From Escherichia coli (GTDB lineage: Bacteria; Pseudomonadota; Gammaproteobacteria; Enterobacterales; Enterobacteriaceae), in the NCBI RefSeq assembly GCF_003790525.1, contig NZ_CP033635.1: a DNA stretch of 64,000 nucleotides. One strand, written 5' to 3'. The notes beneath the pieces are model-generated. The model saw nothing but the letters and a program-made list of their open reading frames with translations. It made no database searches and had not been told where the DNA came from. Each line of letters starts with the position of its first letter. The first letter of the stretch is position 1. The translations under genes were made by a program, and so were the position numbers. Shown in pieces: positions 1 through 46,509 of this stretch.

Positions 1-507
1 GTAGCGCAAATGGAACCCTTCTTTTGCTTCGATCACCTGTTGGTCGGCACGCCAGCCAGCGGCAGCGGAGCAGGTTATTGGTTGGCCGATAATCTCTTCC
101 AGGGTACGAAGGCCTCGTGCAATATCGTCGACCATCGTTTGCCGATCCCAGTTGCCGCTATGGGCTTGCCAGGCGTGGTGATCCCAGGCGTGCAGGCCGA
201 CTTCGTGGTATTTAGCCGCTTCACGAATGATATCGGCATTGGCATGACCAATCTCTTTACCTGGCCAGGCCGTACCTGCCAGTAAAATATCCCAGCCATA
301 AAGCGATGCCGCGTTTGAGCGCAGCATCTTCCACAAAAACTGTGGCTTCACCAGTCGCCAGAGATGGCGGCCCATATTGTCCGGGCCGACGCTGAAAAAA
401 ATGCTGGCCTGAATATTATGCTTACTCAAGATTTCCAGCAGACGCGGCACGCCTTCACGGGTGCCACGAAAGGTATCGACATCAATGCGTAAGCCGACTT
501 TGGTCAT
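1..507 (-). CDS. arnD: ArnD, 4-deoxy-4-formamido-L-arabinose-phosphoundecaprenol deformylase; N-terminal part only, C-terminus lies beyond the window edge
   Basis: Minus-strand frame opens at ATG 505-507 ([12 protein letters not shown]...) and stays open to position 1, reading ...[10 protein letters not shown] at the edge. Start overlaps the arnA stop in an ATGA arrangement. Not in the ORF track because it is open at the window edge. Confidence 0.85.
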
Positions 508-2485
508 GATGGTTTATCCGTAAGATCAACGGTGCGCAGGAAGAAATCCAGCGTTTCGTCGATGGTTTCCTGCATATCAATTTTCGGTTCCCAGTCCAGG
601 CAGCGGCGGGCATTGCGGATGCTCGGTTTACGATGCTCTACGTCCTGATATCCTTTGCCGTAGTAGCTGCTACTTTCGACAACACGAAAGCCCGCAAACG
701 GTGGGAAGTAATGGCGCAGCGGATGTTTTTCGAAGCTCGCCAGCAGCATCTCCCCCAGTTCTTCAATGCTCGCTTCGTTCTCAGGATTGCCAATGTTGAT
801 AATTTCGCCATCGCAGCGATTTCCCGCATTTTCGATAATGCGGTATAACGCCTCGATACCATCCCGAATATCAGTAAAGCAGCGTTTTTGTTTTCCGCCA
901 TCAATCAGCTTAATCGGTGAACCTTCTACCAGATTGAGAATGAGTTGCGTAATAGCGCGGGAGCTGCCAATTCGCGCTGCATTAAGGTTATCCAGTCGTG
1001 GCCCCATCCAGTTAAACGGGCGGAAGAGGGTGAACTGTAAACCTTCTTTTTCGCCATAGGCCCAGATCACTCGATCAAGTAATTGTTTAGACACCGAATA
1101 AATCCAGCGTGGTTTATTCACCGGGCCGACGATTAAATTAGAATGGTCCTCATCGAAGTATTTATCGCTACACATCCCATAAACTTCTGAAGTCGACGGG
1201 AAGATGATTCGCTTACGGTACTTCACGCAGTAGCGGATAATGCGCAGATTCTCTTCGAAATCGAGTTCAAATACGCGCAGCGGGTTGCGGGTATATTCAA
1301 TCGGCGTGGCTATCGCCACCAAAGGCAAGACGACATCACATTTTTTGACGTGATACTCAATCCATTCGGAATGAATACTGATATCGCCTTCGACAAAGTG
1401 AAAATGCGGATGATTCAGAAAACGGCTTATCGCATCGCTGCCAATATCCAGACCGTAAACTTCATAATGATCTTCGCGCAGCAGGCGTTCTGTCAGATGG
1501 TTGCCAATAAAGCCATTCACCCCGAGGATGAGTACCCGGGTACGGCGTCGGGCGGCACAGGCAGGCTGGCTATTCAAGCGTGAACCTTGCACCAGGCCCA
1601 GCGTCTGCGCTAATTGCGAGCCCTGCATAGTAATGCCGCCGCCCGCCTGTCCAGTGACGATTTCCAGCGCGCCATCGCCACAGGCAATCAGCAGTGGCGC
1701 AACAGAAATCACGCTCCCCGGTTGTGCTGCGGGCGCATGAGAATGTACGCGTGACGACCAGACGGTAAATTTTTGATTACCAACATAGCTGAAGGCACCC
1801 GGCCACGGATCGGCGACTGCACGCACCATGTTATGCAATACTGCTGCCGATTTGTGCCACTCGAGGAAGCTGTCTTCTGGCGTTCTGCGACCAAAACAGG
1901 TGGCTTCGTTTTCGCACTGGGCGATTTCCAGAATATTACCGTCTTTAATGGCGGGTAATGTCTGCTCCAGTAGCTGTCGCGCGGCATGGCATAACTTATG
2001 ATGCAGCGTAATGGCGATATCGTCTGGCGCAATGGCAATGCGCAGTTGGGCTACAATGGCCCCAGCATCGGCACGTTTCACCATTCGGTGCAATGTCACG
2101 CCAGTTTCCGTTTCACCGTTCACCAGCACCCAGTTCAGCGGCGCGCGACCACGATATTTTGGTAACAGTGAACCATGCAGATTAAATGCGCCTGCAGGAG
2201 CGAGCTGCAAAATCTTGTCGTGAATAAGATGGCGATAATAAAAAGAGAAAATCACATCTGGTGATAGTTGGGCAATGCGTTCCACCCACAGCGGATGGTT
2301 AACGTCATCCGGCGCATAAACCGGAATGCCTCTTTCCGCTGCCAGACGAGCCACCGAACCATAAAAGGCTTTTTCACCGGGATTATCAGTATGGGTAAAA
2401 ATGGCGCTAATTTCGTAACCGGCAGCCAGCAGGGCTTCAATACCGAGGCATCCCATATCGTGGTAGGCAAAAACGACGGTTTTCA

Positions 2486-2486
<1 letters not shown>
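504..2486 (-). CDS. arnA: ArnA, bifunctional UDP-glucuronate decarboxylase / UDP-Ara4N formyltransferase
   Basis: 660-aa ORF with N-terminal formyltransferase domain and C-terminal NAD-dependent dehydrogenase/decarboxylase domain; length matches ArnA. Confidence 0.95.
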
Positions 2487-3457
<971 letters not shown>

Positions 3458-4630
3458 TTATTGTCCTGCGAGTTGCTGAAGGGCTGTGATGACGCGGTCG
3501 GCATCGGCGGTAGTCATATCCGGGAACAGCGGCAACGAACAGATGCGTTCGCTATTCCATTCGGTATTCGGTAACGACAGCGTGGGAAAACGCTCGCGAT
3601 AATATTTTTGTGTGTGAGCGGCGCGGAAATGTAACCCGGTACCAATACCTCTTTCTTTTAACGCTTCCATCAACGCATCGCGACTGATACCACAACGTTG
3701 TTCATCGACACGAATAATAAACAGATGCCAGGCGTGAACGTGCGGCCAGGCGGGAAGGCTTAATGGCTGAAAGGGGAGAGCTGCCAGTGCTTGCTGATAT
3801 TGCTGGGCAATTTCGCGCCGACGGGTGTTGAGGTGCTCTAATTTTGCTAACTGTGTCAGGGCAATCGCGGCGTTAATATCGGTCAGATTGTACTTATAGC
3901 CCGGTGTTAAGACTTCAGCTTGCGGTGCACGGCCCCAGGTTTGTCTGTCATAGGCATCGACACCCAGACCGTGAAATTTCAGCATCCGTAGCTGGCGGGC
4001 AAGGTTTTCATTATCAGTTACAATCAGGCCACCTTCAGCACAGGTAATATTTTTAATGGCATGAAATGAAAAAATAGCGGTACCTTTTGCGCCAATATGT
4101 CGCCCTTTGTAATACGTACCGACGGCATGGGCAGCATCTTCGATAACTGCGATGCCGTAACGTTCGCCAATGGCGCGAATGGCGTCAATATCTGCTGGCG
4201 CACCGGCATAATGCACCGGAATGATGGCTTTAGTGCGTGGCGTAATGGCTGACTCGATCGCTTCAGGCGTGACCATCAGCGTATCGCGGTCGACATCCAC
4301 CATTACCGGCGTTGCACCCAACAAGGAGATCATATTGAGGGTTGAAACCCAGGTCAGGGAAGGCGTAATCACTTCATCGCCCTTGCCTATTTCCAACGCC
4401 ATTAGCGTGATATGCATTCCGGCGGTGGCTGAACTGACCGCGATGGCATGCTGATTTCCCGTCAACTGGCAAAAGGCTTGTTCAAGCGCCTGATTCTTCG
4501 GACCGGTTGTGATCCAACCGGATTCGAGAACCTCTTTAACTGCAGCGAGTTCCTCCACGCCCATTGCTGGTCGCGAAAAAGGCAAAAATTCTGACATTGC
4601 TTTTCCTTCCGCCATTGAATACCTGTCCAC
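3458..4630 (-). CDS. arnB: ArnB, UDP-4-amino-4-deoxy-L-arabinose--oxoglutarate aminotransferase (PLP-dependent, DegT family)
   Basis: 390-aa ORF of the DegT/ArnB aminotransferase family. The true start may be an internal Met (M6 or M12 of the ORF), giving about 385 or 379 aa. Confidence 0.9.
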
Positions 4631-25223: not shown

Positions 25224-27509
25224 TCAGATCTTACATGCGCCGCTTTCGCAGCCATCGTCCTGGATTGACGGCACCAGATCGTCTTGTGCGTCTTCTGCAC
25301 CGTCACGGGTGTTCTGATAATACAGCGTTTTAACCCCGAATTTGTAGGCGGTGAGCAGGTCTTTCAGCAGTTGCTGCATCGGCACTTTTCCTGACGGGAA
25401 GCGTGACGGATCGTAGTTGGTGTTAGCAGAGATCGACTGATCGATAAATTTCTGCATGATACCCACCAGTTGCAGATAGCCATCGTTACCCGGCATTTCC
25501 CACAGCAGTTCATAGGCGTCGTGCAGATGCTCGTAGTCCGGCACCACCTGGCGCAGAATACCGTCTTTCGACGCTTTGATGCTGACGTAACCACGCGGCG
25601 GTTCAATACCGTTAGTGGCGTTAGAGATCTGCGAAGAGGTCTCTGACGGCATCAGAGCAGAAAGCGTGGAGTTACGCAGGCCGTGCGTTTTGATTGACTC
25701 ACGCAGTGCTTCCCAGTCGTAATGCAGCGGCTCATTAGCGATGGCATCCAGATCTTTCTTATAGGTATCGATCGGCAGGATCCCTTTCGCGTAAGTGGTT
25801 TCGTTAAACCACGGGCACGCGCCTTGCTCTTTCGCCAGCTCATTAGACGCTTTCAGCAGGTAATACTGAATGGCTTCGAAGGTTTTATGCGTCAGGTTGT
25901 TGGCGCTGCCGTCGGAGTAGCGTTTACCGTGCTTCGCCAGGTAGTAAGCGAAGTTGATCACACCAATACCCAGCGTACGACGCCCCATCGCTCCACGTTT
26001 AGCGGCCGGGATCGGGTAATCCTGATAATCCAGCAGTGCGTCGAGTGCGCGAACCGCCAGAATTGCCAGCTCTTCCAGTTCATCCAGGCTGTTAATTGCG
26101 CCCAGGTTGAAAGCAGACAGCGTACACAGCGCGATTTCACCGTTCTCGTCGTTGACGTCGTTCAGTGGTTTGGTCGGTAGGGCGATTTCCAGGCACAGGT
26201 TAGACTGGCGCACTGGTGCAATAGCCGGATCAAACGGGCTGTGGGTGTTGCAGTGGTCTACGTTCTGAATATAGATACGACCGGTAGACGCACGTTCCTG
26301 CATCATCAGCGAGAACAGCTCAACGGCTTTCACACGCTGCTTGCGGATGCTGTCATCTTTCTCATATTTGGTGTACAGGCGTTCAAACTCTTCCTGATCG
26401 GCGAAGAACGCGTCGTACAGCCCCGGTACGTCGGACGGGCTGAACAGAGTGATATCTTCACCTTTCAGCAGACGGGTATACATCAGTTTGTTGATTTGTA
26501 CCCCGTAGTCCATATGACGCACGCGGTTGCCTTCCACCCCACGGTTGTTTTTCAACACCAGCAGGCTTTCAACTTCCAGATGCCACATCGGGTAGAACAG
26601 TGTTGCCGCACCGCCGCGCACACCGCCCTGAGAGCAGGATTTCACCGCTGTCTGGAAATGCTTATAGAACGGAATACAACCGGTATGGAACGCTTCGCCA
26701 CCGCGAATCGGGCTACCCAGCGCACGAATACGCCCGGCGTTGATGCCGATCCCGGCACGCTGGGAAACGTATTTAACAATCGCGCTGGAGGTGGCGTTGA
26801 TGGAATCCAGGCTGTCGCCGCACTCGATCAGTACGCAGGAGCTGAACTGACGAGTCGGGGTACGCACGCCGGACATGATTGGCGTCGGCAGCGAAATTTT
26901 AAATGTGGAAACCGCGTCGTAAAAACGCTTCACGTATTGCAGGCGCGTTTCACGCGGGTAGTTCGAGAACAGGCACGCGGCAACCAGAATATAAAGGAAC
27001 TGGGCGCTTTCGTAGATTTCGCCGGTCACACGGTTCTGCACCAGATATTTGCCTTCCAGCTGCTTAACGGCAGCATAAGAGAAGGTCATATCACGGTCGT
27101 GATCGATAAACGTGTCCATCTGCTTGAACTCTTCTTCCGTGTAGTCTTCCAGCAGATGATTATCGTATTTGCCCATCTCGACCATTTTCACCACGTGGTC
27201 GTACAGCGCAGGCGGCTCAAACTGGCCGTAGGCTTTTTTACGCAGGTGGAAGATCGCCAGGCGCGCGGCGAGATACTGATAATCCGGCGCATCACGGGAG
27301 ATCAGGTCTGCGGCAGCCTTGATAATGGTTTCGTGGATGTCAGAGGTCTTGATACCGTCATAAAACTGAATGTGGGAGCGCAGTTCGACCTGGGAAATCG
27401 AAACGTTATGCAGTCCTTCTGCCGCCCAATCCAGAACGCGATGGATTTTGTCGAGATTGATGCGCTCTGTGCTACCGTCGCGCTTTGTCACCAGCAGATT
27501 CTGATTCAT
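25224..27509 (-). CDS. nrdA: NrdA, class Ia ribonucleotide reductase alpha subunit
   Basis: 761-aa ORF, full-length match (MNQNLLVTKRDGSTERINLDKIHRVL…). Confidence 0.95.
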   Translation of the reverse strand: MNQNLLVTKRDGSTERINLDKIHRVLDWAAEGLHNVSISQVELRSHIQFYDGIKTSDIHETIIKAAADLISRDAPDYQYLAARLAIFHLRKKAYGQFEPPALYDHVVKMVEMGKYDNHLLEDYTEEEFKQMDTFIDHDRDMTFSYAAVKQLEGKYLVQNRVTGEIYESAQFLYILVAACLFSNYPRETRLQYVKRFYDAVSTFKISLPTPIMSGVRTPTRQFSSCVLIECGDSLDSINATSSAIVKYVSQRAGIGINAGRIRALGSPIRGGEAFHTGCIPFYKHFQTAVKSCSQGGVRGGAATLFYPMWHLEVESLLVLKNNRGVEGNRVRHMDYGVQINKLMYTRLLKGEDITLFSPSDVPGLYDAFFADQEEFERLYTKYEKDDSIRKQRVKAVELFSLMMQERASTGRIYIQNVDHCNTHSPFDPAIAPVRQSNLCLEIALPTKPLNDVNDENGEIALCTLSAFNLGAINSLDELEELAILAVRALDALLDYQDYPIPAAKRGAMGRRTLGIGVINFAYYLAKHGKRYSDGSANNLTHKTFEAIQYYLLKASNELAKEQGACPWFNETTYAKGILPIDTYKKDLDAIANEPLHYDWEALRESIKTHGLRNSTLSALMPSETSSQISNATNGIEPPRGYVSIKASKDGILRQVVPDYEHLHDAYELLWEMPGNDGYLQLVGIMQKFIDQSISANTNYDPSRFPSGKVPMQQLLKDLLTAYKFGVKTLYYQNTRDGAEDAQDDLVPSIQDDGCESGACKI

Positions 27510-27586
27510 GTATGTCGTACCTGTTTTTGGAATTCTTTCCGCAATAGTTTCATGCAGACTACCTGTAGTGAGGGAAGCTGCTTAGA

Positions 27587-27634
27587 ACACTATATATAGG
27601 GGGTATGTTTGGGATTCACTGCAAGATAGTGTGA
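27587..27634 (-). promoter_or_regulatory. nrdAB promoter NrdR boxes (two)
   Basis: Two NrdR-box-like palindromes on the nrdA strand (cactatatatag core at 27587-27602; tcacactatcttgcagtga at 27617-27634), about 80-125 bp upstream of the nrdA start. Confidence 0.6.
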
Positions 27635-27662
27635 AAATGGCCCTCTTGCAAGTGCATAACTT

Positions 27663-27671
27663 TGTGGATAA
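27663..27671 (-). promoter_or_regulatory. DnaA box upstream of nrdA
   Basis: Plus strand tgtggataa is the reverse complement of the DnaA-box consensus TTATCCACA. Confidence 0.6.
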
Positions 27672-28204
27672 CTCAGGAAGGAAAAAGTGGCTTTCGCGCA
27701 CCTTAGGTCAGACAAGGTGTCCGGGAAAGTCAATGGGAAGAGAAAAATTTGTTAAAAATAACTGTTCGGCGATTTCTTGAACGGAAGAATAGGTTAGATA
27801 AATTGATATAGATGGTTTATTAATCTTTTTGCTAATGATTGCAAAAATTGATCTAAGCACGAGTCATCACATAATCTGATGTATCAGTTATGGTCAATAT
27901 ATAAGCGAATGTAAGCGATTGTTGATGTCGAAATGGTTGTTTTCTCTTCGGTTGTTGTTAAATGCGAAGCCATTTTGTTAATTTACCTTATATTATAAGA
28001 AAATTATTCATTACTTTAATTCAGTTTAAACATAACTGATATCCCTTAAGGTGATTAACTTGAATTATGACGCACTGATATTATTCATGAAATAATAACA
28101 AAATAGCCATTGCACCGGGTTGAACAATTTACAAAAGAAAAATAACCCATATCGTATAATGCGATTAAATATGCCGTCTTATAGAAAATGATGGTCAGAT
28201 TAAT

Positions 28205-31200
28205 ATGCGGATTATTTTTCTACGCAAGGAGTATTTATCTTTACTCCCGTCAATGATTGCATCTCTTTTCTCTGTTAACAGTGTCGCGGAGGTTTTGGAT
28301 TCATGCCAGGGATATGATATCAAAGCGAGTTGTCAGGCCAGCAGGCAAAGCCTTTCAGGCATTACGCAGGACTGGAGCATCGCCGATGGGCAATGGGTGA
28401 TTTTTTCGGGTATGGCCAATAATGCCAGCGGTGGTGCCGTATTTTTGCAGCAAAGTGCTGAATTTACGATATCACCACAAAATGAAACAGGGATGACCCT
28501 GTTTGCTAATAACTCGATTAGTGGCGAATATAATAATGGCGGAGCTATCTTTGCTAAAGAAAACTCAACGATAAATCTTGCGAATGTTATTTTCGACAGT
28601 AACGTTGCAGGAGGCTATGGCGGAGCAATCTATTCTGCGGGAACAAACGATGCCGGTGATATGGATTTAAATATCACTAATGCAATATTTGCGAATAATA
28701 TCGCCAATGATGGTAAAGGTGGCGCTATTTATTCTATCAATAATGATATTTATTTAAGTGATGTCATTTTTGATAATAATCAGGCATATACATCAACCAG
28801 CTATAGTGATGGGGACGGCGGTGCCATTGATGTTACGGATAATAGTACGGATAACACACATCTTTCAGGAAAAACGATAATTAATAATACCTCCTTTACC
28901 AATAACTATGCAGAAGGTTATGGCGGAGCAATTTATACCAGCAGCACCACATCCCCGTATCTTATTGATATTTCTGTTGATGATAATTATGACCAAAACA
29001 ATGGTGTGATGATTGATGAAAATAACAGCGCCTCGGGATATGACCATTCGGCGACGGCAGCGGCGGGGGGCTTTATGTATATCGGTCATAGTGTGGCTGA
29101 ATTTAACATTGCCGCCGATAAAACGCTGGTAATAGGCAATACCAGCAACGATGGCGCGATTGATTCTCTTGCCGGAACGGGAGTCATCGTGAAAGAGGGA
29201 GCGGGAGAGTTAGTCCTCAATGCCGACAATAATGCGTTTACCGGCGAGATGAGTATCCAGAATGGCGAGGTGACGCTGGGGCGCAGCGATGAGTTAATGA
29301 ATGTCGGCGACACGCACTGTCAGAGCGATCCGCAGGATTGCTTTGGTCTGATGGTCGGCAGCACTGTTCATTCTGAGTATCAGGCAGAACTGAATGTTGG
29401 CAATACACAACAAACGTTTGTGCACTCATTAACCGGTTTTGCTAATGGCATTTTGAATATCGACGCAGGCGGCAATGTTACCGTAAACCAGGGCGGTTTT
29501 TCCGGCTCGATTCAGGGTGAAGGACAGTTGACGGTAGCGCAAGATGGCAGCTATCTCCTGACAGGGGAGCAGTCGATGGCATTAACCGGCGATATTGTGG
29601 TGGAAGATAACGCCGTATTGTCGCTAGCGGGGAATCAGGCCGATTTACGGGCAATGCAGAGCGATCCGCAATCGATCGTGCTAAATGGCGGAGTATTGGA
29701 TCTCTCTGATTTCACCACTTGGGATGGCGATAGCTCATACAATGACGGTCTGCAAATCAGCGGCAGTGGGGGGACAGTGATTGGCAGTAATGATGTCGTT
29801 GATATCAGCAGTGGCGATGATTTACATATTGGCGGCAGTGATGCCAGCCAGAATGGCGTTTATGTCGTCATTAATGCGGGGGATCAGCGCGTAACGCTGG
29901 CGAATAACAACGGTTATCTCGGTAATACGCAAATCGCCTCCGGTACGCTTGAAGTCAGCGATAATTCGCAATTGGGGGACACAAGTTACAACCGTTCAGT
30001 GATCTTCACAGATCCCCAACAACACAGTGAAATGGATGTGACGACTGATGTTGACACTCGCTCGGCTACAACAGGTCAGGGCAGGAATATTGAAATGCGC
30101 GCTGATGGCGAAATACACGTTGAGGATGGCGTAGATACGCAATGGGGCGGGTTGATGGCGGATAGTACCGGGCAACAACTGGATAGCGTAAGCACGTTGA
30201 CTAAAAGTGGCGGCGGGACGCTGGAGTTGACCGCCAGCGGCACTGCGACGTCTGCGGTACGTGTGGAGGACGGAACGCTAAAAGGTGAAGCGGAGAATAT
30301 TATTCCTTATGTTTCTTCACTGTGGGTGGGGGAAGACGGTGTTTTTGAAACCGGGAAAAATCAGGATATTCGTTCAATCGATGCCACCTCTGGCGGCGAT
30401 ATCGACATAACCGATGGTACTGTGTTGCGATTGACGCAGCAGGATACGAACCAGGCGCTGGATGCCTCGCTGTTTAGCGGCGACGGTACGTTGGTGAATG
30501 CCACCGATGGTGTGACGCTGACAGGCGAGCTTAATACCAACCTTGAAACTGACAGCCTGACTTATCTTTCAGACGTGACGGTCAATGGTGATCTAACTAA
30601 TACTTCCGGTGCTGTCAGTCTGCAAAATGGCGTTGCTGGCGACACGCTCACGGTAAACGGTGATTACACCGGTGGCGGTACGTTGTTTCTCGACAGCGAA
30701 TTAAACGGCGATGACTCGGCAAGCGACCAACTGGTGTTGAACGGTAATACTGCTGGCAACACGACCGTGGTAATTAATCCCATTACGGGTATTGGTGAGC
30801 CGACATCTACGGGCATTAAAGTGGTTGATTTCGCAGCCGATCCAACGCAATTTCAAAACAATGCGCAGTTCAGTCTGGCGGGCAGCGGCTACGTCAATAT
30901 GGGAGCGTATGACTACACGCTGGTGGAAGATAACAACGACTGGTATCTGCGATCGCAAGAAGTAACGCCACCATCGCCACCTGATCCAGACCCGACTCCA
31001 GATCCTGATCCTACGCCGGATCCTGATCCAACACCCGACCCGGCTCCAGCCCCTACGCCTGCCTACCAGCCGGTGCTGAATGCCAAAGTTGGTGGCTATC
31101 TCAATAACCTACGTGCGGCAAATCAGGCATTTGTGATGGAGCGACGCGATCACGCTGGTGGCGATGGTCAGACGCTGAATTTACGTGTTATCGGCGGAGA

Positions 31201-31969
31201 TTATCATTACACAGCAGCGGGGCAACTGGCTCAGCATGAAGACACTTCTACGGTGCAGCTTAGCGGCGACTTGTTTAGCGGGCGCTGGGGCATGGATGGC
31301 GAGTGGATGCTTGGGGCGGTTGGTGGCTACAGTGATAACCAGGGCGACAGCCGCTCGAATATGACCGGAACTCGCGCCGATAACCAGAACCACGGTTATG
31401 CCGTTGGTCTGACCTCAAGCTGGTTCCAGCACGGTAATCAGAAGCAGGGGGCCTGGCTGGATAGCTGGCTGCAATACTCGTGGTTTAACAATGATGTTTC
31501 CGAACATGAAGATGGCGCGGATCATTACCACTCATCGGGGATTATCGCCTCGCTGGAAGCCGGGTATCAGTGGTTACCGGGGCATGGAGTGGTGATTGAA
31601 CCACAGGCGCAGGTGATTTATCAGGGCGTGCAGCAGGATGATTTTACCGCCGCTAACCATGCGCGGGTGTCACAATCGCAGGGTGATGATATTCAAACGC
31701 GGCTGGGTTTACACAGCGAATGGCGTACCGCGGTTGGTGTCATACCAACATTAGATCTGAATTATTATCACGATCCCCATGCGACGGAAATTGAAGAAGA
31801 TGGCAGCACTATCAGTGACGATGCGGTGAAGCAACGGGGTGAAATAAAAGTGGGAATAACGGGCAATATCAGTCAGCGAGTTTCGCTGCGTGGTAGCGTG
31901 GCGTGGCAGAAAGGGAGTGATGATTTTGCCCAGACGGCAGGGTTTTTGTCGATGACAGTGAAATGGTAA
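28205..31969 (+). CDS. yfaL: YfaL (EhaC-type) AIDA-like autotransporter adhesin
   Basis: 1254-aa ORF with N-terminal signal sequence, pectate-lyase-like repeat passenger (GGAIY motifs), proline-rich linker and C-terminal beta-barrel translocator domain. Confidence 0.9.
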   Translation: MRIIFLRKEYLSLLPSMIASLFSVNSVAEVLDSCQGYDIKASCQASRQSLSGITQDWSIADGQWVIFSGMANNASGGAVFLQQSAEFTISPQNETGMTLFANNSISGEYNNGGAIFAKENSTINLANVIFDSNVAGGYGGAIYSAGTNDAGDMDLNITNAIFANNIANDGKGGAIYSINNDIYLSDVIFDNNQAYTSTSYSDGDGGAIDVTDNSTDNTHLSGKTIINNTSFTNNYAEGYGGAIYTSSTTSPYLIDISVDDNYDQNNGVMIDENNSASGYDHSATAAAGGFMYIGHSVAEFNIAADKTLVIGNTSNDGAIDSLAGTGVIVKEGAGELVLNADNNAFTGEMSIQNGEVTLGRSDELMNVGDTHCQSDPQDCFGLMVGSTVHSEYQAELNVGNTQQTFVHSLTGFANGILNIDAGGNVTVNQGGFSGSIQGEGQLTVAQDGSYLLTGEQSMALTGDIVVEDNAVLSLAGNQADLRAMQSDPQSIVLNGGVLDLSDFTTWDGDSSYNDGLQISGSGGTVIGSNDVVDISSGDDLHIGGSDASQNGVYVVINAGDQRVTLANNNGYLGNTQIASGTLEVSDNSQLGDTSYNRSVIFTDPQQHSEMDVTTDVDTRSATTGQGRNIEMRADGEIHVEDGVDTQWGGLMADSTGQQLDSVSTLTKSGGGTLELTASGTATSAVRVEDGTLKGEAENIIPYVSSLWVGEDGVFETGKNQDIRSIDATSGGDIDITDGTVLRLTQQDTNQALDASLFSGDGTLVNATDGVTLTGELNTNLETDSLTYLSDVTVNGDLTNTSGAVSLQNGVAGDTLTVNGDYTGGGTLFLDSELNGDDSASDQLVLNGNTAGNTTVVINPITGIGEPTSTGIKVVDFAADPTQFQNNAQFSLAGSGYVNMGAYDYTLVEDNNDWYLRSQEVTPPSPPDPDPTPDPDPTPDPDPTPDPAPAPTPAYQPVLNAKVGGYLNNLRAANQAFVMERRDHAGGDGQTLNLRVIGGDYHYTAAGQLAQHEDTSTVQLSGDLFSGRWGMDGEWMLGAVGGYSDNQGDSRSNMTGTRADNQNHGYAVGLTSSWFQHGNQKQGAWLDSWLQYSWFNNDVSEHEDGADHYHSSGIIASLEAGYQWLPGHGVVIEPQAQVIYQGVQQDDFTAANHARVSQSQGDDIQTRLGLHSEWRTAVGVIPTLDLNYYHDPHATEIEEDGSTISDDAVKQRGEIKVGITGNISQRVSLRGSVAWQKGSDDFAQTAGFLSMTVKW
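30961..31062 (+). repeat. Tandem degenerate 18-bp repeats encoding the Pro-rich linker of YfaL
   Basis: Encodes PSPPDPDPTPDPDPTPDPDPTPDPAPAPT; repeated ccNgaTccNgaNccNacNcc units. Confidence 0.8.
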
Positions 31970-32907: not shown

Positions 32908-33606
32908 TTACTGTGTAGATAACGAGAGAATTTTTCGTGCGCGCTCGGTAAATCCACTACTTACGTGATGAGTAATAAAATTACAAACACCTTCAACGTT
33001 ATTATTTTTTAGCATATCTAAAATAGTCGCATGGCCACGATTTGAATTGGTGATATATTCCGTAGTGAAATCCAGTCGATAACGGATAGCAAGTAAACGT
33101 GCGGATATCAATTGGTGTGCCTGAGAGATGTATTTATTATCAGCGTATTTAACAAACACATAATGAAAATCATGATCCAGTTTAAGATAAGCCTGAGTAT
33201 CGCGCTCGGCATTAATTTTTGCTGATTTTGATAGTATACTATTTAGTTCAATGATGACATTGTTTGCATTCTTTTCCATTGCTTCACTAATTGCACCCTG
33301 CTCCAGAATTACTCGCATTTTTATGAGGTCATTAATATCTTTATCTGTTACGGAAAAAACGAATGTTCCGCTGCGTGGAATGATATTGATCAGATTTTCA
33401 TTGTGACTAAGTAAAATAAAAGCTTCACGAATAGGTGTTTTACTTACCGCCAGAATATTCGAAAGTTCATTTTCACTTATCGGTTGCCCAAGACTGAGAT
33501 CGCCATGAATTATCATATCCCTGATTTTTTCTTTGATGACCTGTGTTACGGATTTTGGTATCTCAATTGATATGTGACTTAAGTCACGTTTCGCTTTATC
33601 TCTCAT
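32908..33606 (-). CDS. GntR-family (FadR/FCD subfamily) transcriptional regulator; accessory-island gene
   Basis: 232-aa ORF with N-terminal GntR-type winged HTH (…LSENELSNILAVSKTPIREAF…) and C-terminal all-helical FCD-like domain; codons are AT-rich. Confidence 0.8.
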   Translation of the reverse strand: MRDKAKRDLSHISIEIPKSVTQVIKEKIRDMIIHGDLSLGQPISENELSNILAVSKTPIREAFILLSHNENLINIIPRSGTFVFSVTDKDINDLIKMRVILEQGAISEAMEKNANNVIIELNSILSKSAKINAERDTQAYLKLDHDFHYVFVKYADNKYISQAHQLISARLLAIRYRLDFTTEYITNSNRGHATILDMLKNNNVEGVCNFITHHVSSGFTERARKILSLSTQ

Positions 33607-33670
33607 TCCTTTGCCCCTTATTAAGCTGCTGGTCCATTATATGTAATCATTTTATCAATGAAGGTATCTA

Positions 33671-33753
33671 ATATATCAGATATGACAAAAATGATATATC
33701 TTATTGTTGTAGCTTAGTGTTTCAATCAATGATCAAGCTGATATATCAGATAT
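33671..33753. promoter_or_regulatory. Two copies of a 13-bp operator-like motif in the divergent regulator / transporter promoter region
   Basis: atatatcagatat occurs at 33671-33683 and again at 33741-33753; the core atatc-a-gatat is an inverted repeat. Confidence 0.45.
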
Positions 33754-33843
33754 AACACATCACCTTTTGAACTGGATTATTTTTTACGTAATATCCACTT
33801 CGGGCAGTACTCTTATTCATTGAACCACAAAAGGTGAAACAAA

Positions 33844-35172
33844 ATGAGCAGTCCTCAGAAAGATTTGTATGAAGCCATTTCTATTGTGAAAAGGAAGATT
33901 ATTCCGTTAGCATTTATTCTGTATTTTTTTAACTATATGGATCGTGTTAACATCGGATTTGCCGCTTTACGCATGAATGAATCCCTTGGTATTACACCAG
34001 AGGATTTTGCTAATATATCTTCAATATTTTTTGTGTCCTATTTGATTTTTCAAATTCCGAGCAGTATTGGATTGCAAAAGTTAGGTGCAAGAAAATGGAT
34101 TAGCGCCATTATTGTTGGTTGGGGAACAGTAACAACGTTAATTTTCTTTGCCAAAGACACCCAGCATATATTGCTCGCTCGGGTCTTTTTGGGAATATTT
34201 GAAGCGGGGTTTTTCCCTGGCATGGTTTACTACCTGGCATGTTGGTTCCCGGCGCGTGAACGTGGAAAAGTGAATAGCTTTTTTATGTTATCAATCGCAG
34301 TTGCATCTGTGCTGGCGGCACCAATGTCTGGTTGGATTATTGAACATATGAATACCGGTAACTATGAAGGATGGCGCTGGCTTTTTGCTATTGAAGGCAT
34401 TCCTACGGTGTTATTGGGGGCGCTGACCTTTTATTTACTGCCAGATCGTCCGGAAAAAGCCCGCTGGCTTACACCATCGCAAGTCACCGCATTGGTCGAT
34501 AAACTTAATTCTGATAACGAAAAAGCCGCAGCATTAAATAAAAATACAAATGCATCTTTTCTGTCAATCATTAAAAATCCAGTATTACTACAACTCTCAT
34601 TTGCTTATATGTTTATTCAGGCAGCGGCGTTGGCGGCAAATTACTGGTTACCGGGGTTGGTTAAAGGATTTTCATCGGATTTCACAGATACCGATGTCGG
34701 TTTGATTATGAGTATTCCGTTTATTTTCGCGATGTTCAGTATGCCATTATGGGGATGGCATTCCGATAAAAAGAATGAAAGGAAATGGCATGCCGCACTA
34801 CCGATGTTGGTTGCAGGTTGCGGTTTTTTAATGATCGCACTTGTACCTTCGATGACGCTGCGCATGATGGGATTAACATTATACGGTGTAGGCATTCTCA
34901 GTTATTACGGTCCGTACTGGGCTTTACCCTCAGCTTTACTTTCACCATCAGGCCTGGCAATCAGTATTGCGTTTATTAACTCTTGTTCAAGTTTGGGTGG
35001 TTTTCTGATCAATAAATCACTTGGCTATGTTTCTACACATTATGGAGCCACGGGGATATTTATTGTTGAGGCGATTCTTTGCTTTATCGCCGTAGCTATT
35101 TTGTTATCAATGAAAATTGATAATAAAAAAGATAACGCCCAGAAAGACAATGTTATTTCACATGCTAAATAA
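33844..35172 (+). CDS. MFS transporter of the anion:cation symporter (ACS) family, sugar-acid type (DgoT/RhmT/GudP-like)
   Basis: 442-aa ORF with motifs shared with the RhmT in this window (…DRVNIGFAA…, [11 protein letters not shown]…, WFPxRER). Confidence 0.8.
   Translation: MSSPQKDLYEAISIVKRKIIPLAFILYFFNYMDRVNIGFAALRMNESLGITPEDFANISSIFFVSYLIFQIPSSIGLQKLGARKWISAIIVGWGTVTTLIFFAKDTQHILLARVFLGIFEAGFFPGMVYYLACWFPARERGKVNSFFMLSIAVASVLAAPMSGWIIEHMNTGNYEGWRWLFAIEGIPTVLLGALTFYLLPDRPEKARWLTPSQVTALVDKLNSDNEKAAALNKNTNASFLSIIKNPVLLQLSFAYMFIQAAALAANYWLPGLVKGFSSDFTDTDVGLIMSIPFIFAMFSMPLWGWHSDKKNERKWHAALPMLVAGCGFLMIALVPSMTLRMMGLTLYGVGILSYYGPYWALPSALLSPSGLAISIAFINSCSSLGGFLINKSLGYVSTHYGATGIFIVEAILCFIAVAILLSMKIDNKKDNAQKDNVISHAK

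Positions 35173-39662: not shown

Positions 39663-46509
<6,847 letters not shown>

Follow-up and report, generated by a model that had tools for sequence, protein, structure and literature searches.

The control region of nrdAB, which sets the dNTP supply for DNA replication, is a classic case of multi-factor promoter control. The primary paper on H-NS repression of the operon is Cendra et al. 2013, and the K-12 literature names both H-NS and NrdR as repressors of class Ia ribonucleotide reductase. In K-12, two DnaA boxes have been described directly upstream of the -35 hexamer (PMC8203912), and the functional NrdR pair consists of box 1 and box 2, which lie in the leader DNA (PMC12176259). 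The spacer on the yfaL side belongs to the K-12 promoter islands, i.e., regions with at least 8 PlatProm starts per 100-bp window across at least 300 bp; island 2342143_534 (2342143-2342676, "yfaL(-)/ypaB(-)") is listed there, on the basis of the compiled ChIP data sets, as H-NS-bound "according to all studies" (PMC3661553), and the yfaL/nrdA spacer carries an HNS flag in a genomic SELEX study of the RpoD holoenzyme (PMC3946193). A further described relative is found in phage P1, the records of which annotate a segment as "nrdA-like promoter" and "dnaA box" (GenBank M95666, NC_005856).

The corresponding DNA in the window, by which we mean the whole 64-kb stretch analyzed here, is the 695-bp gap between the divergent genes nrdA and yfaL (27510-28204, from ORF calls and RefSeq annotation; Table 1). 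Its sequence is identical to that of E. coli strain SMS-3-5 and, across the gap, 96.7% identical to that of K-12, the orthologue from which all statements on binding and regulation are carried over. With a GC content of 34.2%, compared to 50.3% across the window, the gap agrees with its description in a first-pass annotation as a nearly 700-bp AT-rich divergent region. We read this interval as two non-coding control regions that lie side by side, differ in their histories, and contain no independent gene, a reading to which we give a probability of about 85%. According to our analysis, the interval is already known DNA, namely the published nrdAB control region together with AT-rich yfaL upstream DNA that is H-NS-bound in K-12, and current understanding is left unchanged; of some interest is the question whether H-NS control reaches nrdAB through the acquired AT-rich island.

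Table 1. Features of the nrdA-yfaL interval and its flanking genes (positions are those of the window).
Feature	Position	Strand	Basis or remark
nrdA, class Ia ribonucleotide reductase alpha subunit	25224..27509	-	761-aa ORF; RefSeq annotation of the identical SMS-3-5 sequence
nrdA 5' leader DNA, ~107-110 nt	27510..27616	-	-10 position and reported start; predicted start ~27616-27619
NrdR box 2, TCACTACAGGTAGTCT	27556..27571	-	15 bp downstream of box 1; 2 nt off the K-12 box 2 oligo (PMC12176259)
NrdR box 1, CCCCTATATATAGTGT	27587..27602	-	exact match to published oligo; conserved across Enterobacterales
NrdR "box 0" palindrome	27617..27633	-	exact match to published oligo; CACTATCTTG invariant in 14 genera
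-10 hexamer TATCTT of PnrdA	27623-27628	-	overlapped by NrdR box 0
Weak DnaA-box-like site ATTTTCACA, promoter spacer	27630..27638	-	1 mismatch to TTWTNCACA
Segment also in P1/P7-like phage-plasmids, upstream of hot and humD	27633..27762	.	78-95% identity
Annotated ORF ypaB, 47 codons	27637..27780	+	RefSeq; antisense to and overlapping the nrdA promoter/upstream region; judged non-coding
-35 hexamer TTGCAA of PnrdA	27646..27651	-	17 bp from -10; CACTTGC invariant in 14 genera
Second DnaA box TTATGCACT	27651-27659	-	motif scan; abuts -35
DnaA box TTATCCACA, perfect	27663-27671	-	motif scan; invariant in 14 aligned genera
HusR (YnfL) box CACTTTTTCCTTCCTG	27674-27689	-	exact match to a box in Table 1 of PMC12844172
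HusR (YnfL) box CAGACAAGGTGTCCGG	27709-27724	+	exact match to a box in Table 1 of PMC12844172
Distal upstream block ...GTTATTTTTAACAAAT / CGTTCAAGAAATC	27747..27790	-	final stretch with homology to ubiG-nrdA spacers elsewhere in Enterobacterales
AT-rich DNA upstream of yfaL, specific to the lineage; most of the K-12 promoter island/H-NS platform	27791..28204	.	GC ~29.5%; relatives; PMC3661553
Predicted local intrinsic bend, junction of the two halves	27800..27860	.	wedge model; 29 degrees peak at 27846, >99th percentile of the window
Sigma-70 promoter-like site TTGATC-16-CATAAT	27848..27875	+	consensus scan; predicted, towards yfaL, ~330 bp upstream of the ATG
yfaL, AIDA-I family autotransporter adhesin YfaL/EhaC	28205..31969	+	1254-aa ORF; RefSeq annotation

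Judged from its sequence, the nrdA-proximal part of the interval (27510-27790, ~280 bp) is the published nrdAB promoter/operator, the core of which is conserved across Enterobacterales. It is 98.2% identical to the K-12 segment, with no indels, and the two promoter hexamers, the two DnaA boxes, the two HusR boxes, and NrdR boxes 0 and 1 have the same sequences in both. The promoter is of the sigma-70 type (TTGCAA-17-TATCTT), its -10 hexamer ending 113 nt from the nrdA ATG, and would initiate transcription ~107-110 nt upstream of the gene. We place the start at ~27616-27619 because of the position of the -10 hexamer and of a transcription start reported 110 nt upstream of the ATG. The fold predicted for the leader RNA is ordinary (z = 0.42), and the leader has no Rfam match. 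The DnaA box that had been noted on the nrdA side is a perfect one, and it is accompanied by a second box next to the -35 hexamer. DnaA at these two boxes would, as published, activate the promoter at low ATP-DnaA and repress it at high ATP-DnaA. Such repression probably proceeds via the weak box in the promoter spacer, a candidate ATP-DnaA repression site that we equate with the published third box (PMC8203912). Growth-phase input would be provided by HusR and by upstream Fis/IciA sites, as has also been published. The distal block of the module may correspond to the published Fis/AT-rich upstream activating site.

We also compared the NrdR boxes of the window with the published oligonucleotides. 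The 58-nt K-12 oligonucleotide covering boxes 0 and 1 is matched exactly, while the one covering boxes 1 and 2 is matched with 2 mismatches, box 2 differing by two substitutions between the window (TCACTAC) and K-12 (GTACTAC). Since the window form also occurs in Pseudocitrobacter, in E. albertii, and in a B2-type E. coli strain, the K-12 form is the derived one; the CACTAC half-site of box 2 is kept in Yersinia, Hafnia, and Dickeya. Boxes 1 and 2 form a pair of 16-bp palindromes 15 bp apart, as expected of an nrdAB operator (15-16 bp), and when up to 3 mismatches were allowed, the only match to the NrdR consensus in the whole window was box 1 (27587-27602). The first-pass annotation had counted two NrdR-box-like palindromes among its stacked sites. 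These sites are real and match the published oligonucleotides, but there are three boxes, the one at 27556-27571 having been missed, and the functional pair is not formed by the two palindromes around the promoter but by box 1 and box 2 (PMC12176259). Annotation should accordingly place the functional NrdR operator in leader-encoding DNA.

Alignments with other genera separate this module from the DNA on its yfaL side. From Escherichia to Yersinia, Serratia, Hafnia, Dickeya, and Edwardsiella, TTATCCACA, CACTTGC, CACTATCTTG, and the core of NrdR box 1 are invariant or nearly so, and the homology that other genera show in their ubiG-nrdA spacers stops near 27790. The nrdA module is 93% identical to that of E. 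albertii. The AT-rich half, for its part, is only ~52% identical to E. albertii and ~50% identical to Pseudocitrobacter, yet it retains a GC content of 28.5-29.5%. The gene with which this half is associated was acquired horizontally: of the 80 species sampled, 4 have yfaL next to nrdA, and in most of the others ubiG is directly upstream, 340-630 bp from nrdA. On these alignments, the DNA from 27510 to ~27790 is the ancestral nrdAB control module, and the AT-rich half is lineage-specific and compositionally constrained. The patchily distributed adhesin gene yfaL would have been inserted between ubiG and nrdA, and the AT-rich DNA, which runs from ~27791 to 28204 and into the 5' end of yfaL, would either have arrived with the gene or evolved around it. 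For annotation, this half is best grouped with yfaL and not with nrdA.

Part of the nrdA module has a counterpart in P1/P7-like phage-plasmids. The best-conserved core shared with the window comprises the -35 hexamer and the two DnaA boxes, whereas the NrdR boxes and the nrdA -10 hexamer are missing from the phage segment, which adjoins a late promoter and replication/repair genes (hot, humD). The phage segment appears to be captured Escherichia-type host DNA and not the source of it. An origin of the E. coli DnaA-box arrangement from a P1-like phage was rejected, as the same arrangement is found with flanking homology in Yersinia, Serratia, Hafnia, and others.

Turning to the AT-rich half, its composition is as extreme as the first-pass annotation had put it: at 29.5% GC, the stretch 27751-28204 is essentially the lowest of all 454-bp stretches in the 64 kb. 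The accompanying proposal of H-NS binding is documented for the K-12 orthologue (PMC3661553; flag in PMC3946193), where the AT-rich part is 95.7% identical with no indels. Island 2342143_534 has the same neighbors, the same AT-richness, and, going by relaxed-consensus sites, a high density of promoter-like sites; its H-NS occupancy is documented in K-12, and the AT-rich half is likened to it by sequence. It presumably corresponds to ~27720-28253 of the window, assuming that the nrdA ATG lies at 2,342,887 in U00096.2. Using relaxed-consensus promoter-like sites as a proxy for PlatProm, we found ~4.7 sites per 100 bp in the AT-rich half, compared to a window mean of 0.86 (99.4th percentile). A strict 9-of-12 promoter scan yielded 6 sites, with 3.1 ± 2.1 expected, and thus no significant enrichment. 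The window's densest run of promoter-like sites lies within the first 800 bp of yfaL, which have a GC content of 40%. Among the predicted sites, TTGATC-16-CATAAT has hexamers that are listed for the yfaL/nrdA spacer (PMC3946193) and that the window matches exactly. We also searched for the H-NS high-affinity motif TCGATAAATT and obtained one site with 1 mismatch (27795-27804), a result that is uninformative because the whole window is dotted with sites of this kind. As to expression, Roux et al. 2005 reportedly found yfaL to be cryptic in the laboratory.

Other listed islands (sfmA, fimB/fimE, yjgL) are likewise AT-rich and fast-evolving, lie upstream of an adhesin gene with a patchy distribution, and are H-NS-bound in K-12 ChIP. 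Unlike these, the yfaL island borders directly on the DNA that controls nrdAB, an essential housekeeping operon, and silencing DNA and an active, regulated promoter therefore lie within ~170 bp of each other. The dense cluster of promoter-like sites and the H-NS platform would both be products of composition, with no specific conserved sequence involved. The platform would keep yfaL, as well as pervasive transcription from the cluster, largely silent, and it is probably also behind the reported H-NS repression of nrdAB.

If the interval did contain an independent gene, one candidate would be ypaB, an annotated ORF with an ATG that the first-pass annotation overlooked when it reported no convincing RBS-ATG or small ORF; its statement holds after testing all the same, and ypaB itself looks spurious. 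Were ypaB real, it would encode a 47-aa protein divergently from the nrdA promoter region, and HusR would activate it in stationary phase or following replication stress; we regard this as the least likely of the alternatives, with hardly any probability of its own. The sampled chromosomal records that are not of the B2 type do carry the RefSeq annotation, an open frame is likewise present in P1 (UpfO, 46 aa) and P7 (Upf91.6), and "ypaB" RNA has been reported to be HusR-dependent in stationary phase by RT-qPCR (PMC12844172) and to be induced 9.6-fold by AZT in RNA-seq (PMC11228462). These signals imply that some transcript covers 27637-27780, which counts against the reading of two non-coding control regions. 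However, the E. albertii type strain has a TGA at codon 18, the ATG has become CTG in the B2-type strain examined, and differences are spread over the three codon positions as 28/22/25, with 47 non-synonymous versus 8 synonymous codon changes. Given the nonsense codon, the lost ATG, and the lack of codon-position bias, ypaB is probably spurious, a chance open frame over regulatory DNA, kept open by the conservation of the DnaA, HusR, and promoter sites in it. Further points against a gene are that no Shine-Dalgarno sequence occurs in the 22 nt before the ATG (TTGGGATTCACTGCAAGATAGT plus GTGAAA), that the ATG lies between the -35 and -10 hexamers of PnrdA, which is read from the other strand, and that the protein matches no family in Pfam or NCBIfam. 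The annotation is absent from the seven chromosomal records sampled at ~90% identity (579 records fall below 90%), and within E. coli there are "partial YpaB" variants truncated to 25-32 aa. Homologues of YpaB were found only in E. coli/Shigella, in one Salmonella-labeled fragment, and in P7-like phage, several of them truncated. One supplement of a ribosome-profiling study of small ORFs (Stringer 2021, 10.1101/2021.07.02.450978) has no entry for the locus, which argues weakly in the same direction. Targeting ypaB by CRISPRi is deleterious, as the nrdA promoter is included in the ORF. We suggest that ypaB is better treated as regulatory DNA than as a gene. The remaining ORFs of at least 25 aa in the gap offer no better candidate: none is conserved in the AT-rich half, where all are stopped in K-12, in the B2-type strain, or in E. 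albertii, and those over the nrdA module are open only because the DNA itself is conserved.

The AT-rich half has room for a small RNA that escaped annotation or for a long 5' leader with a regulatory role, acting in cis or in trans and starting, e.g., from the promoter-like site at 27848-27875. The RNA polymerase holoenzyme binds the yfaL/nrdA spacer in vitro and the promoter TTGATC-16-CATAAT has been predicted independently (PMC3946193), promoter islands are described as forming open complexes and making short RNAs (PMC3661553), and the 330 bp to yfaL would be an unusually long leader, with space for regulation. We nevertheless consider such an RNA very improbable. An Rfam search at permissive E-values returned chance-level matches alone (best E = 0.05, at 21.5 bits versus a gathering score of 94.2), and the fold energy of the AT-rich half equals that of shuffles (z = 0.13). 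A promoter/terminator scan of the interval found 0 intrinsic-terminator-like sites, in accordance with the earlier remark that no convincing terminator hairpin is present. Identity to E. albertii is lower in this half (~52%) than on either side, where it amounts to 72% in yfaL coding DNA and to 93% in the nrdA module, and nothing in the AT-rich half is therefore conserved as a structured RNA would be. In addition, promoter islands are reported to give very little full-length RNA (PMC3661553), and, as weak evidence, the supplements consulted for an E. coli 3'-end map (Adams 2021, PMC7815308) contain no 3' ends for nrdA, yfaL, or ypaB. The first-pass view that a small RNA could hide here but that none is convincing was therefore borne out by matches, terminators, conservation, and fold alike. 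Another possibility is that the key property of the AT-rich half is curvature from helically phased A/T tracts, which would position H-NS or activate promoters. Here, we analyzed tract centers and AA/TT steps by Fourier analysis against 500 dinucleotide-preserving shuffles, and found no excess periodicity of 10-11.25 bp anywhere in the interval (p = 0.40-0.83), while A/T runs of at least 4 numbered 14, compared to 13.7 expected from shuffles. The phased A/T tracts of the first-pass annotation were thus not recovered. Of its curved promoter DNA, a single predicted bend near 27800-27860 remains, built from the A5/T5 runs at 27743, 27754, 27826, and 27843 and among the six strongest curvature peaks in the 64 kb (wedge-model parameters, presumably those of Bolshoy et al. 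1991, passed a sanity check on a phased A-tract control). Beyond that bend, the island shows no general curvature, its mean predicted value of 11.7 degrees being just modestly over the window mean of 8.75 degrees, and AT-richness by itself is enough for H-NS binding. We therefore rate curvature as the key property as unlikely, although less so than a hidden RNA.

Returning to the reading of two control regions with different histories, we can offer a more speculative extension, one that we hold tentatively and think rather doubtful. The insertion of yfaL may have put an H-NS nucleation platform ~170 bp from the promoter of nrdAB, an operon that is essential and under cell-cycle control, such that H-NS repression of nrdAB would be a side effect of an acquired adhesin gene. 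The HusR-dependent, replication-stress-induced "ypaB" RNA could then report on a non-coding transcript, either divergent or upstream, by which this silencing is countered in stationary phase or under dNTP shortage. As a minor observation, the repeats in the interval are just short AT-rich two-copy matches, and the DnaA-box pair appears as a 10-nt direct repeat.

Across 27400-28320, this Escherichia coli sequence showed no difference from strain SMS-3-5 and several further genomes (100% identity); of 5,426 complete E. coli genomes, 5,423 contained 80% or more of it. The first-pass annotation rightly described a divergent nrdA/yfaL gap of nearly 700 bp (27510-28204, 695 bp) whose yfaL-proximal part, put at about 500 bp, is extremely AT-rich. 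GC content was 34.2% in the gap versus 50.3% in the window, 43% in the 241 bp next to nrdA, and 29.5% in the 454 bp adjoining yfaL, essentially the minimum for that length in the 64 kb. The second-lowest-GC stretch in the window (~33331-34100) coincides with a GntR-family regulator gene downstream of ubiG (32909-33651), annotated as frameshifted in SMS-3-5.

Features of the nrdA-yfaL gap and copies of its nrdA-upstream segment in phages and a plasmid
Feature	Position	Strand	Remark
nrdA	25224-27509	minus	
NrdR box 2	27556-27571		
NrdR box 1	27587-27602		
NrdR box 0	27617-27633		
PnrdA -10 hexamer TATCTT	27623-27628	minus	from oligonucleotide match
DnaA-box-like ATTTTCACA	27630-27638		one mismatch; PnrdA spacer
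ypaB, 47 codons	27637-27780	plus (yfaL strand)	RefSeq annotation
PnrdA -35 hexamer TTGCAA	27646-27651	minus	from oligonucleotide match
Second DnaA box TTATGCACT	27651-27659		abuts PnrdA -35
DnaA box TTATCCACA	27663-27671		perfect; just upstream of PnrdA -35
HusR (YnfL) box	27674-27689		unchanged vs PMC12844172 listing
HusR (YnfL) box	27709-27724		unchanged vs PMC12844172 listing
Predicted promoter TTGATC-16-CATAAT	27848-27875	plus (yfaL strand)	same as PMC3946193 site
yfaL	28205-31969	plus	
Phage copy, P1	L005 1501-1615		
Phage copy, P7	L007 701-829		
Plasmid copy, 111-kb plasmid	L002 5001-5139		

Sequence matches identify the nrdA-proximal half of the gap as the published nrdAB promoter/operator. 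Of the NrdR-binding oligonucleotides in PMC12176259, the 58-nt "box 0+1" matched exactly at 27582-27639 and "box 1+2" at 27551-27607 with two mismatches, and these matches placed the hexamers of the nrdA promoter (PnrdA), which are spaced 17 bp apart. The NrdR-box-like palindromes and DnaA box noticed earlier were real but undercounted: there are three NrdR boxes rather than two, and two DnaA boxes plus a weak one rather than a single box. Since NrdR binds boxes 1+2, which lie 15 bp apart, with high affinity (about 100 nM) and boxes 0+1 more weakly than 6 uM (PMC12176259), the operator lies in leader-encoding DNA and is not the palindrome pair bracketing the promoter. We suggest that the one-mismatch ATTTTCACA is a candidate for the ATP-DnaA-specific site of PMC8203912. 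By chance, 64 kb should hold 0.5 perfect DnaA boxes and 0.56 NrdR-like sites; single motifs are therefore not beyond expectation, and it is position and cross-species conservation that count. Across the 14 genera aligned, which range from Escherichia to Yersinia, Serratia, Hafnia, Dickeya, and Edwardsiella, there was no variation in TTATCCACA, CACTTGC, or CACTATCTTG and little in the NrdR box 1 core. The only other perfect DnaA box in the 64 kb lies at 44940-44948.

We then compared nrdA neighborhoods fetched for 80 Enterobacterales species. Among these, the yfaL-nrdA adjacency was confined to E. coli, E. albertii, a Pseudocitrobacter MAG, and isolate RIT691; most other species carried ubiG immediately upstream of nrdA and codirectional with it, separated by spacers of 340-630 bp at 34-52% GC. 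Since homology of the E. coli gap to these spacers stops near 27790, the AT-rich half (~27791-28204) belongs with yfaL. It also evolves fast, being 95.7% identical in K-12, 85.7% in a B2-type strain, about 52% in E. albertii, and about 50% in Pseudocitrobacter; the corresponding values for the nrdA module were 98%, 96%, 93%, and 85%. GC content of the AT-rich half was 28.5-29.5% in E. coli, E. albertii, and Pseudocitrobacter; composition has been kept and sequence has not. The RIT691 equivalent has 43% GC (27791-28204 compared with L009, L015, and L039).

The first-pass annotation found no convincing small ORF in the gap; it had overlooked ypaB, although our tests likewise judge this ORF non-coding. 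The ypaB ATG falls in the PnrdA -35/-10 spacer on the opposite strand, with no Shine-Dalgarno sequence ahead of it; codon 18 is a stop (TGA) in the E. albertii type strain, CTG replaces the ATG in the B2-type strain examined, and the annotation was absent from all seven ~90%-identity chromosomal sequences sampled. A search of 5.8 billion proteins recovered homologues only in E. coli/Shigella, P7-like phage, and one 27-aa Salmonella-labeled fragment, several of them shortened to 25-32 aa. Over seven comparisons, substitutions at codon positions 1, 2, and 3 numbered 28, 22, and 25, and changed codons were non-synonymous in 47 cases versus synonymous in 8. The disruptions in relatives together with the lack of codon-position bias argue against ypaB being a coding gene; its frame probably stays open because the DNA is conserved for binding sites. 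In an earlier CRISPRi screen, the fitness effect of ypaB was assigned to the nrdA promoter inside it.

Each of the other gap ORFs of at least 25 aa was either interrupted by a stop in K-12, E. albertii, or the B2-type strain or overlapped the conserved module. The earlier view that the gap shows no convincing sign of a small RNA or terminator hairpin was upheld: an Rfam search gave nothing above chance, a promoter/terminator scan found no terminator-like sites, RNA fold energies equaled those of shuffles, and the AT-rich half held no conserved block. The locus also had no entry in the supplements of a ribosome-profiling study and a 3'-end map, which is weak negative evidence. RNA assigned to "ypaB" reportedly shows a HusR-dependent increase in stationary phase (PMC12844172) and also increases after AZT treatment (PMC11228462).

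The proposed H-NS association of the AT-rich part is borne out for its K-12 orthologue, one of 78 "promoter islands" (entry 2342143-2342676, "yfaL(-)/ypaB(-)"), which was H-NS-bound in every ChIP data set compiled (Panyukov and Ozoline, PMC3661553). The yfaL/nrdA spacer is also an RpoD-holoenzyme SELEX site flagged "HNS," with a predicted TTGATC-16-CATAAT promoter (Shimada et al., PMC3946193). Relaxed-consensus promoter-like sites numbered 4.7 per 100 bp in the island versus 0.86 in the window (99.4th percentile); in a stricter scan, the excess was not significant. The longest dense run of such sites in the window is not intergenic; it falls inside the yfaL CDS (28625-29072), the 5' part of which is AT-rich (40% GC over the first 800 bp). 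Phased A/T tracts, which had also been claimed, were not found: periodicity of A/T-tract centers or AA/TT at 10-11.25 bp was no stronger than in 500 dinucleotide-preserving shuffles, in the whole gap or any part (p = 0.40-0.83), and A/T runs of 4 or more were as frequent as in shuffles. A wedge model using the parameters of Bolshoy et al. 1991, validated with an artificial phased A-tract, predicted a single bend where the halves meet (near 27800-27860); elsewhere, predicted curvature was close to average.

We infer that an ancient nrdA control module here meets xenogeneic, AT-rich DNA that goes with yfaL. At PnrdA, as described for K-12, DnaA on the two upstream boxes most likely modulates transcription according to nucleotide state, HusR, Fis, and IciA act upstream, and H-NS represses nrdAB. 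Composition alone would make the AT-rich half an RNA polymerase trap and H-NS platform, leaving yfaL largely silent, and this neighboring DNA may be the source of the H-NS repression of nrdAB. A further reading, in which the acquired island brings an essential operon under H-NS control and the "ypaB" RNA reports anti-silencing transcription, we consider doubtful (roughly one chance in five). All of these elements were already known from K-12, and what this analysis adds is small: evidence against coding by ypaB, a boundary near 27790 that separates ancestral from yfaL-associated DNA, AT-richness retained without sequence conservation, and the absence of A-tract phasing.

Strains and genera also differed around nrdA. 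At 27567-27571 in NrdR box 2, K-12 reads GTACTAC, while the window, the B2-type strain, E. albertii, and Pseudocitrobacter share TCACTAC; the box of K-12, the laboratory strain of the NrdR binding studies, is therefore derived and less consensus-like. B2-type strain THO-003 lacks 27529-27541, 13 bp of nrdA leader (minus strand CGGAAAGAATTCC) 19 nt upstream of the ATG, and in other ~90%-identity strains the alignment begins only at gap position 33. Within 400 bp upstream of nrdA (L008-L087), Enterobacterales show two alternative DnaA-box placements: 69-79 bp upstream of NrdR box 1 (Escherichia, Pseudocitrobacter, Yersinia, Serratia, Hafnia, Dickeya, Edwardsiella, and Rahnella), or an inverted pair from 16 bp after the box 1 start, the position of E. 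coli NrdR box 2 (Citrobacter, Klebsiella, Enterobacter, Kosakonia, Pantoea, Erwinia, and Mixta). Escherichia is unlike its nearest relatives sampled.

P1/P7-like phages and phage-plasmids carry a copy of 27633-27762 (78-95% identity) upstream of and adjoining hot and/or humD, with the -35, two DnaA boxes, and most of "ypaB"; the -35 and DnaA boxes are best conserved, and P1 records already annotate an "nrdA-like promoter" and "dnaA box." Plasmids of the complete E. coli genomes gave 234 matches to the segment; there were also 317 matching records in PLSDB and 55 matching contigs in IMG/VR, 44 of these contigs with hot and/or humD nearby. In one IMG/VR contig (L092, IMGVR_UViG_2778261537_000017, 1-4024), nrdB-nrdA-upstream segment runs directly into P7-like DNA, and contig 000004 of the same genome (L107) ends within the segment, entered from the P7 side; the junction reflects either an assembly mis-join caused by the repeat or genuine recombination of the chromosome with a P7-like element at the shared 130 bp.
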